From Promethearchaeota archaeon (GTDB lineage Archaea; Asgardarchaeota; Lokiarchaeia; Sigyniarchaeales; SOKP01), in assembly GCA_019057795.1 (NCBI GenBank), contig JAHLWS010000075.1, positions 44,498 through 108,497 on the forward strand: DNA of 64,000 nucleotides, given 5' to 3'. The position numbers and the translations under genes were made by a program. The notes beneath the pieces are model-generated. The model was not told the origin of the DNA. It saw nothing but the letters and a program-made list of their open reading frames with translations, and searched no databases. Positions 22,424-24,678 of the stretch are shown here, one piece after another. Each line of letters begins with the position of its first letter. Position 1 is the stretch's first letter.

Positions 22424-22665
22424 TTTTACTCACTGATATATATATACATGTGATCATATAAAAATTACTATTTTTTATATTTCAAATATATTCAATTCGG
22501 CTTTTTCGCTATGATAAAAAAGTCTTAGAACAACTATACGATTTTCATGTGATAATCTTCAAAAAAGTAAGACTTCCTCAGAACAAAATTAATAATCTAG
22601 CTCAGCAAACATTTTGGGACAAATAAATATAAATTAAAATAAAAAAATAAAATAAAAATTAAGGT

Positions 22666-24678
22666 TTAACCTACTTCGACATCCATTTTCTTGCGCTCTT
22701 CAAGCAATACATCGACTATTGAAGGATCGGCTAAGGTCGTAACATTACCGATTTCTGTACCTGAAGCTATGGCCTTCAAAATCCTGCGCATAATCTTACC
22801 GCTTCTCGTCTTTGGCAAGGCATCAGCAAATTGAATTACGTCCGGCTGAAATACTGGACCTATCTCTTGTCTAACATGCATACGAATTTCTTTCGATAAC
22901 TTCGCTGATTTTTCAATGCCGCCCATTAATGTCACGAACGCCCAAATAGCTTGTCCCTTTATTTTATGCGGAAAGGGTGCTATGGCAGCTTCCGCTACCT
23001 TTGGATGGCTCACTATAGCAGATTCTACTTCCATTGTTCCTATGCGGTGTCCAGATACCTTAATAACATCGTCTAATCGTCCAAGGATCCAATAATAGCC
23101 ATCGTCATCTGTTCGTGCTCCATCACCAGTGTAATAATGCCCTGGATATTTTTCGAGATAAGTTGATTTAAATCTCTCAGTATCTCCCCAAACATCACGT
23201 AACATACCCAGCCAGGGTGTTTGAATTGCAAAGTAACCACCTTCGTTTGGCTCGGTGATTTCATCACCTTCTAAGTCAAAAATAACTGGTTTGATGCCGA
23301 AAAAAGGCATACAACAGGATCCTGGCTTTGTAGGTGTTGCTGTAGCAATTGGTGTCATGATAAAGCCGCCCGTTTCTGATAGCCAATGTACTCGAAATGA
23401 TTACATTTTTTGCCAGTATGTATCTACTATCGGGCAGCGCTCTTTACCAACAACTCTATGATACCATGTCCATGCTTCGGGATTTATTGGTTCTCCAACA
23501 GTACCTAGGACTTTTAATGAGCTTAGGTCGTGCCTATTTACTGGTTCATCACCGTGTCTCATTAAAGCACGTATTGCAGTAGGTGCTGTATAAAATTGGT
23601 TGACTTTATGGCGTTCTACAATGTCCCAAAAACGATCTACATCAGGATATGTTGGAACGCTTTCAAACATTAAAGTAGTTGCTCCATTTGCCAACGGACC
23701 ATATATGATATAACTATGACCAGTTATCCAACCTATGTCTGCAGTACAATACCAAACCTCGCCTTCCTTGTAGTTGAATACGACTCTATGAGTGAAGGAT
23801 GTGTATAAGATATATCCGGCTGTTGTGTGTTTAACGCCTTTAGGCTTTCCTGTGGTGCCGCTTGTATAGAGTAAAAATAGTGTATCTTCGGAGTCCATTT
23901 CTTCGGGTTCGCACTCGTCGCTCATTCCATCGATAAAATCATCATACCAGATGTCTTTATCTGTGTGAGGGACTTCGTTTCCTGAACGCTTAACGACAAT
24001 AACATGTTCAATTGTAGGCACATCATCAATAATCTTAACGACATCAGCCATTTTTGGGTAAGTCTTACCAGCTCGTAAAGTTTCGTCACTTGTAAACAAT
24101 AGTCGCGAATCAGAATCTTTCACTCTATCTTTCACAGCTTCTTTCGAAAATCCACCGAATACTATGGAATGAATCACGCCGATTCGGGCACAGGCTAGCA
24201 TTATTATCGCTAATTCGGGAATCATTGGTAACCAAATGGTTACTCTATCGCCCTTTTTCAGTCCGAAATCTCTCATACCGTTAGCTACTTTACTTACTTC
24301 TTTTAAAAGCTCGGTATATGTGAATTTTCTCACTTGTCCGGGTTCATCCGCTTCCCATATAATAGCGACGCGATCTCCATTGCCTGCTTTCACATGTCTG
24401 TCAAGGCAATTGTAGGCTACGTTAAGTTTTCCGCCAACAAACCATTTACCAGGGAACAGATCGGTTTTTTCCCATACTTTATCGTATGGTTTAATCCAAT
24501 CGATTGATTTAGCTTGTTCGTCCCAGAACCCTTCCATATCTTCGATGGATCGTTTATATAACTTCTGATATTCATCCATTGACATTCCAGTTTTCGCATA
24601 GTCGGGACTGACATCTACAGGGTTAAATATCCGATTTTCAGTGAGTACACTTTTCATTTTTGTGTCTTTTTCTGACAT
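22666..24678 (-). CDS. acs: AMP-forming acetyl-CoA synthetase, interrupted by a 30-nt putative BHB intron (660 aa after removal)
   Basis: Track ORFs 23401..24678 and 22666..23358 are in the same frame. Motifs LYTSGTTGKPKG, ADIGWITGHSY, GEPINPEAW, DTYWQ/ETGG, TGDGA, GRLDDV, LPKTRSGKIMRR. The only lesion is the 30-nt insert. Confidence 0.95.
23379..23408 (-). other. Putative bulge-helix-bulge mRNA intron in acs (AAATGTAATCATTTCGAGTACATTGGCTAT)
   Basis: Contains an in-frame TAA. Intron stem AATGTA/TACATT, two 3-nt bulges (AAA, ATC) flanking a 4-position central helix GGCA/GGCT (3 pairs plus an A.G). Excision gives TGG CAA ACA GAA ACG GGC GGC = WQTETGG. Confidence 0.78.

Follow-up and report, generated by a model that had tools for sequence, protein, structure and literature searches.

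A bulge-helix-bulge (BHB) intron in the pre-mRNA of crenarchaeal cbf5 was reportedly described by Watanabe in 2002 and by Yoshinari in 2006. The intron of the cbf5 pre-mRNA of Crenarchaeota has a relaxed form of the motif, goes together with a heteromeric endonuclease and has been lost in a lineage-specific manner (Yokobori 2009, PMC2738675), and a 2020 study that treats cbf5 as the sole coding-sequence example adds an intron in the 5' untranslated region of a Haloferax mRNA (PMC7714728). For Asgard archaea, a 2026 census of introns covers tRNA genes only, treating no protein genes, and finds that most genomes carry two paralogues of the splicing endonuclease EndA (bioRxiv 10.64898/2026.10.13.758758). 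In the literature searched, coding-sequence pre-mRNA splicing in archaea is confirmed for cbf5 only, and no description was found of such introns in Asgard protein genes, in line with the initial annotation of the DNA considered here, which had known of none in an Asgard acs (acetyl-CoA synthetase) gene. This DNA is a stretch of 64,000 nucleotides (nt), hereafter the window (contig JAHLWS010000075.1; G000:C75:44498-108497), from a Promethearchaeota archaeon whose genome, G000, measures 4.95 Mb with 31% G+C in 87 contigs; the Asgard host assumed at the outset agrees with the nearest public records, which are Promethearchaeota or Promethearchaeia metagenome-assembled genomes. The window contains an acs gene interrupted by 30 nt (23379..23408) which, judging from the sequence, are very probably an archaeal BHB intron within the acs pre-mRNA, removed to yield an acetyl-CoA synthetase (Acs) of 660 amino acids (aa).

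Like the cbf5 intron, that of acs is short, lies inside the coding frame, has a relaxed BHB at its borders, is found together with a hetero-oligomeric endonuclease and is lost in some lineages. It differs in that acs is a metabolic gene of another phylum, with introns at eight sites, at least six introns in one gene and intron-rich next to intron-free sisters, and in that the splicing of cbf5 has been shown experimentally whereas the case for acs comes from DNA comparison. With the BHB introns of archaeal tRNA and rRNA genes it has in common the motif, the presumed use of EndA and the ligase RtcB, similar sizes, many gains and losses and the presence of two EndA paralogues, the difference being that the acs substrate is an mRNA, with the exon half of the motif built from codons. 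In HVO_1309 of Haloferax volcanii EndA likewise acts on an mRNA outside the tRNA or rRNA context (PMC7714728), but there the intron lies in the untranslated leader, whereas the acs intron falls within coding sequence, in a catalytic motif.

The acs gene occupies 22666..24678 of the minus strand, as do all of its features given below, with its ATG at 24678 and its stop codon at 22668..22666. A single frame runs through the whole gene, being common to the open reading frames 23401..24678 and 22666..23358, and the sole interruption is a TAA at 23403..23401. At the break the mRNA reads ...GAT ACA TAC TGG CAA A/AAATGTAATCATTTCGAGTACATTGGCTAT/CA GAA ACG GGC GGC... (slashes mark the predicted cuts here and below), the insert 23408..23379 falling within the invariant motif YWQ/TETGG. 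Exon 1 (23409..24678) comprises 423 codons and the A at 23409, which is the first base of the Thr codon at the junction; the intron (23379..23408, mRNA AAAUGUAAUCAUUUCGAGUACAUUGGCUAU) carries the in-frame UAA at 23403..23401; and exon 2 (22666..23378) begins with the CA that finishes the Thr codon, followed by 236 codons and the stop, giving a spliced length of 423+1+236 = 660 aa. Pfam matches are ACAS_N and AMP-binding positions 6-321 in exon 1 and AMP-binding_C in exon 2. Exon 1 covers profile positions 3-416 and exon 2 positions 418-647 of NCBIfam NF001208 (acetate-CoA ligase), the corresponding ranges in TIGR02188 being 3-398 and 400-628, and in both profiles the single position that is absent is the codon rebuilt at the junction. 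Four removals of 30 nt leave three bases between CAA and GAA, and Thr (ACA) is obtained from A/.../CA alone, the three others giving Ser or Lys; deletion of ten whole codons gives Ser. The common frame, the position of the insert with its TAA, the outcome of the cut rule (ACA, WQTETGG and 660 aa, against Ser for a ten-codon deletion) and the statement that neither half has any other lesion had all been part of the initial annotation, and each held when recomputed, exon 2 being free of further stops and frameshifts.

At the borders of the insert a helix enclosed by two 3-nt bulges is found, in the relaxed form only. The central helix joins GGCA of exon 1 (23411..23414) to GGCU of the intron (23381..23384), with the pairs G.U, G-C and C-G and an A.G mismatch read from 23414..23411 against 23384..23381, and the variants GGUU, AGCU and UGUC of the intron strand still pair; among nine distinct sequences from relatives three of the pairs are kept in all nine, and the fourth is a standard pair (A-U) in one, A.A in another and A.G in most. 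The 5' bulge AA/A (23408..23410) would be cut between 23409 and 23408, the canonical place after the second bulge base, and the 3' bulge AU/C (23378..23380) between 23379 and 23378, where C 23378 and A 23377 are invariant across all intron-bearing alleles. On the intron side, the arms AAUGUA (23402..23407) and UACAUU (23385..23390) form a stem of 6 base pairs (bp). On the exon side, CU (23415..23416) pairs with AG (23376..23377) through U-A and C-G in 100% of the nine distinct sequences, and further out lies a clamp between 23425..23438 of exon 1 (codons Cys415-Val418) and 23365..23374 of exon 2 (codons Glu425-Gly428), which includes the pairing of GCUGCCCG (23438..23431) with CGGGCGGC (23372..23365). 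In the clamp 91% of the cells are paired, compared with 28-67% when the partners are slid, and in RNAalifold the alignment columns 16-18 pair with 81-83 and 22-24 with 75-77. Every pairing that had been named beforehand (helix, both bulges, 6-bp stem, exon pairs and distal pairing) could be located.

The same site was then compared in about 70 related acs genes, the genus comprising 42 genomes including G000, of which 30 have this acs. An insert at site 423 (sites are numbered by the intron-free G005 protein), constantly of 30 nt, is present in G000, G009, G003, G023 and G018, in the genome record L061 and in five metagenome contigs, in total 12 loci from independent assemblies with 8 intron sequences and 9 distinct 100-nt rows; these lineages have diverged to 74-77% nucleotide identity, yet the length has not changed. 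Alignment of the relatives thus yielded what the initial annotation had hoped for, a same-site insert with a covarying stem. The stem takes the forms AAUGUA with UACAUU, AAUGCAAGC with GCUUGUAUU, AAAUC with GAUUU, AAUGGUUGC with GCAAUUAUU and AGUGAUUGU with GCAAUCACU, pairing being kept in each, and five of its six pairs show compensatory double changes among the nine distinct sequences. In the structure as a whole 88% of the cells pair, compared with 29-54% after a shift of the 3' partners by 1-3 columns, and the observed covariation score was reached by none of 500 shuffles; pairing in the insert exceeds chance. RNAalifold, run with no structure supplied, returned the same stem, central pairs and distal exon-exon pairs, the stem growing to 9 pairs in other alleles. 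It is therefore the structure rather than the sequence that is conserved, as covariation, slid controls and RNAalifold agree in indicating. The peptide encoded by the insert is unconserved, with stop codons in three of eight alleles and none in the other five.

The intron-free state is represented by 50 distinct alleles, which read CAA ACN GAA at the site, and both the frame and this conserved sequence are regained when each bulge is cut after its second base. Over the approximately 57 kb of the window that are syntenic with G042, G005 and G020 (88-96% identity), 23379..23408 is the sole 30-nt indel in coding sequence, being a gap in all three. The Acs proteins of the intron-free close relatives are 96-98% identical.

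The exon downstream of the insert is subject to strong purifying selection. For L001 and L134, both intron-bearing, the ratio of nonsynonymous to synonymous substitution rates (dN/dS) amounts to 0.074 before the intron and to 0.049 after it; when distant intron-bearing alleles are paired, dS reaches saturation, whereas dN remains close to 0.09 on either side. Because of this ratio of 0.049, and of a low dN at saturated dS, exon 2 is taken to be translated in frame. Synonymous sites that take part in the fold also differ with the presence of the intron: ACA is the codon for Thr424 in 9 of 9 intron-bearing and 15 of 50 intron-free alleles, TGC that for Cys415 in 8 of 8 and 13 of 47, GGC that for Gly428 in 8 of 9 and 7 of 50, and pairing between the third bases of Pro416 and Gly427 occurs in 7 of 9 and 13 of 50, respectively. 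In 5-6 of six contrasts that are phylogenetically independent, the G/C clamp accompanies the intron, control codons being directionless, in a test of low power (p about 0.03-0.06). Exon third positions shaped in this way are not expected from a dead gene or from a translated insertion.

Overall identity also shifts around the junction. Within 23280-23500 of the window, the approximately 90 nt around the junction are 84-89% identical to the distant intron-bearing allele of the G003 type (77% overall), and the same flanks are just 84-89% identical to those of the closest intron-free relatives (92-93% overall), a pattern that may stem from structural constraint or from co-conversion of these flanks.

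A route from this transcript to the complete enzyme can be proposed as follows. The acs transcript would fold so that GGCA of exon 1 pairs with GGCU of the intron, with the bulges AA/A and AU/C on either side, one side of the helix being flanked by the intron hairpin and the other by the short and the distal exon-exon pairings. A heteromeric EndA would cut each bulge after its second base, and ligation of the exons by RtcB would form the ACA (Thr) codon of YWQTETGG at the junction TACTGGCAAA/CAGAAACGGGC, the product being an AMP-forming acetyl-CoA synthetase of 660 aa, while unspliced RNA would give a truncated product of 425 aa. We infer cleavage, ligation and the exact register from the anatomy of the DNA, covariation, intron-free orthologues, selection on exon 2 and the enzyme genes of the host.

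As regards these enzymes, the genome contains two genes with the EndA domain (PF01974), of about 200 aa each, in the regions C69:74212-74436 and C74:72339-72587, one of which retains the Tyr/His/Lys catalytic residues, the other having its His replaced. An EndA pair with one catalytic copy is the pattern of the heteromeric (alpha-beta)2 enzymes, which, like those of the epsilon type, are able to cleave relaxed motifs. With its single RtcB gene the host is thus equipped with a ligase as well as an endonuclease suited to relaxed motifs, the subunit type being read from sequence alone. ARAGORN called 29 tRNA genes, 16 of them with introns, in a genome rated 100% complete; many other tRNA genes are probably too interrupted for detection, and these numbers are in accord with the many interruptions described for Asgard tRNA genes (bioRxiv 10.64898/2026.10.13.758758).

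Two further protein genes of the same genome are split in a similar manner. A gene for an NAD-dependent epimerase/dehydratase (L256) contains a frameshifting BHB insert of 31 nt (C31:7170-7200, minus strand; ACGT AA/A ... GCGC AT/A), with PF01370 positions 1-130 upstream and 135-240 downstream of it. The only uL11 gene in the genome (C73:108500-108990, minus strand) is broken twice: at one break the frame continues only if a BHB insert of 28 nt (GCAT AA/A ... ATGC AA/A) is taken out, which gives TGIN/IKDV, and at the upstream break there is an in-frame insert of approximately 30 nt with a TAA. Since the sole uL11 gene requires the removal of a BHB insert, the organism must splice mRNA.

Orthologues of acs carry inserts at seven more sites, namely aa 313 (32 nt), 345 (42 nt), 347 (33 nt), 361 (30 nt), 397 (30 nt), 477 (30 nt) and 505 (32 nt). 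The loci with such additional inserts are L022 (G023:C25), L023 (G018:C214), L018 (G007:C50), L147, L148 and L149, and the number of inserts per acs gene reaches at least six in G023, five in one metagenome copy and four in G018, the eight sites together providing 24 distinct inserts. At all eight the protein is restored best by a removal in the BHB register (3-4 pairs in a helix of 4 nt, followed by two bases and the cut, with the intron stem adjoining), including the frameshifting 32-nt inserts at 313 and 505; the intron stem is 3-9 bp long at every site but one, and after removal each gene gives a single full-length match to the reference. When 1891 alternatives per site were ordered by a crude structure score, the true choice ranked first in 7 of 27 cases and among the top four in 23 of 27, and a 24-nt indel in L146, serving as negative control, has no BHB fold. 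The acs intron of the window is thus, most probably, one member of a population of micro-introns of 28-42 nt in protein genes of this Promethearchaeota genus, and these micro-introns are in all likelihood conserved as RNA structure and lost repeatedly.

Their turnover appears to be considerable. On a tree for which the junction region had been left out, the intron at site 423 must have changed state nine times or more, and intron-rich and intron-free acs genes are well-supported sisters on branches of about 0.1 or less, as in L023 (four introns) and L148 (five). The pattern among these sisters looks like all-or-none loss, and repeated loss is the simpler reading because introns at the same site are alike across lineages; reverse copying of spliced mRNA into DNA would be expected to remove all introns at once. 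As to the wider proposal, that the genus has dynamic micro-introns of the tRNA type, with eight sites in acs, co-adaptation of the exons, joint loss through cDNA and shared hairpin cores, we hold the chances to be about even.

Should these readings be true, the closest prokaryotic relatives of eukaryotes would possess an archaeal architecture of introns and exons, with particular dynamics of gain and loss, and acs would point to an enzyme of central metabolism in an Asgard archaeon that is obtainable only via splicing of the tRNA type. Gene callers would systematically mis-annotate such genes as fragments or pseudogenes, Asgard metabolic reconstructions may be wrong as a result, and the tolerance of interrupted protein genes near the eukaryotic ancestor would become directly testable.

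Several observations weigh against a BHB intron in acs. The motif is relaxed, with a central A.G in most sequences and an adjacent exon helix of just 2 bp, and single-sequence minimum free energy folds (z = -2.4 for 90 nt and -1.8 for 47 nt) recover the intron stem and the distal exon pairing, the 4-bp central helix being absent from both. Slipped conformers that excise 28 or 32 nt fold about equally well, and the crude structure score of the 28-nt register is equal to or higher than that of the 30-nt register; the register of 30 nt is therefore fixed by the coding sequence and the orthologues, not by structure alone. A genome-wide scan for BHB geometry between flanking open frames of at least 70-80 codons (depending on the run) was set against a decoy of mirrored geometry, and by structure alone it showed no enrichment (e.g., 84 real against 91 decoy hits at 28-33 nt), from which it follows that the BHB motif alone is not diagnostic. 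Its signal was swamped by closely spaced genes: four of the five top candidates proved by Pfam to be neighbouring genes, the remaining one being the split epimerase, so the scan that had been proposed for other split genes did find one, although its structural component was no better than the decoy.

A further observation concerns RNA. Contigs from four RNA-labelled runs (one of them probably DNA), with a likeness of at least 93%, were searched for the spliced junction. Those from RNA libraries of related strains include parts of acs on either side of the insert, but no contig bridges 23248..23391 and no joint was found. One X16 contig stops short of the 5' splice site by 3 nt, at 23412, and has no loose end.

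Among the other explanations, the one that survives best is that splicing is real but conditional, acting as an on/off switch for acetate activation in the manner of HAC1/XBP1. This had been put forward in the initial annotation, whose BHB-type acs intron has received strong comparative support, whereas for a switch operating through the imperfect helix no evidence was found, and we consider it unlikely. The imperfect central helix, with A.G in most sequences, and the existence of alternative 28- and 32-nt conformers are in keeping with regulation, as is the UAA at which the unspliced RNA of the window allele ends; but the A.G mismatch is the commonest state, the insert lacks a stop codon in five of eight alleles, and close relatives with proteins 96-98% identical have no intron at all. 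Like inserts, moreover, occur at the seven other acs sites, in the epimerase gene and in the sole uL11 gene, where a switch is implausible, and the turnover looks neutral or selfish. The multi-intron relatives, the introns of epimerase and uL11 and the intron-free kin therefore fit constitutive, neutral or selfish micro-introns better than a regulator. HAC1/XBP1 is alike in principle, being a non-spliceosomal cutting and ligation of a short mRNA intron that alters the protein, with ligation of the RtcB type in metazoa, but it relies on the endonuclease Ire1 and twin 7-nt loops and is regulated by stress, so that its likeness to acs is one of analogy and not of membership.

A different route to the complete protein, be it hopping of ribosomes as in T4 gene 60, excision of the 30 nt from the DNA or the action of another RNA-processing enzyme, is improbable. 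A hairpin does follow directly on the last sense codons, with a stop at its start, and EndA is only the putative cutting enzyme. The take-off and landing codons required for hopping are, however, unmatched (CAA or AAA before the gap, UCA before GAA), a hop from AAA would place Lys instead of Thr424, and five alleles have no stop, features that do not make this a programmed bypass. Excision of DNA is contradicted by the retention of the insert in the DNA of several independent assemblies, and any other route has to account for the two-bulge geometry shared by the frameshifting 32-nt inserts at 313 and 505 and for the fact that the constrained features are those of a BHB, that is, the 4-bp helix, the 3' bulge with its invariant C and the covarying stem. 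A translated insertion or an intein was likewise rejected, with stops in three of eight alleles, an unconserved peptide and conserved base pairs.

That the insert always stays in place and acs has recently become a pseudogene in this strain is the least credible explanation, for while the TAA is in frame, close relatives have the uninterrupted gene and no spliced RNA was seen (in contigs of related strains, none of which crosses the site), exon 2 has no other lesion and a dN/dS of 0.049 between intron-bearing alleles in place of the relaxed selection and downstream lesions of a pseudogene, the 30-nt insert persists with compensatory stem changes in lineages 74-77% identical, and synonymous sites of the exons are co-adapted to it.

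With the BHB intron retained as the preferred reading, some minor observations on the introns and their surroundings may be added. Open frames with a reverse transcriptase domain (PF00078) are found in G000 at C58:31667-32272 and C52:64077-64481, with lengths of 488 and 1167 aa, and have a bearing on the possible loss of introns through cDNA. The sequence TCATTTCGAGT is common to the intron of the window and the site-505 intron of G018 (L023), TTGCAATTCGCAA is common to one site-423 intron (L061) and one site-477 intron (L148), and TTCG occurs in half of the 24 distinct introns. Such shared cores could reflect a common family of mobile hairpins; roughly 1-2 chance matches are expected given the self-complementarity of hairpins, and the sharing is not significant.

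Over 200 aa, the Acs of the genus matches proteobacterial or Bacteroidota proteins at 62-72% and archaeal proteins from other families within the same order at 52-57% (L068-L133 vs L024-L035). A horizontal origin of acs is not claimed, the tree being an unresolved three-way split with a long branch for the same order. Scans of the 64-kb window with Rfam and for tRNA genes gave no matches. Downstream of acs, the intergenic region 22470-22660 differs from G005, G020 and G042 by many indels of 12-49 nt, the flanking genes being 90-93% identical.

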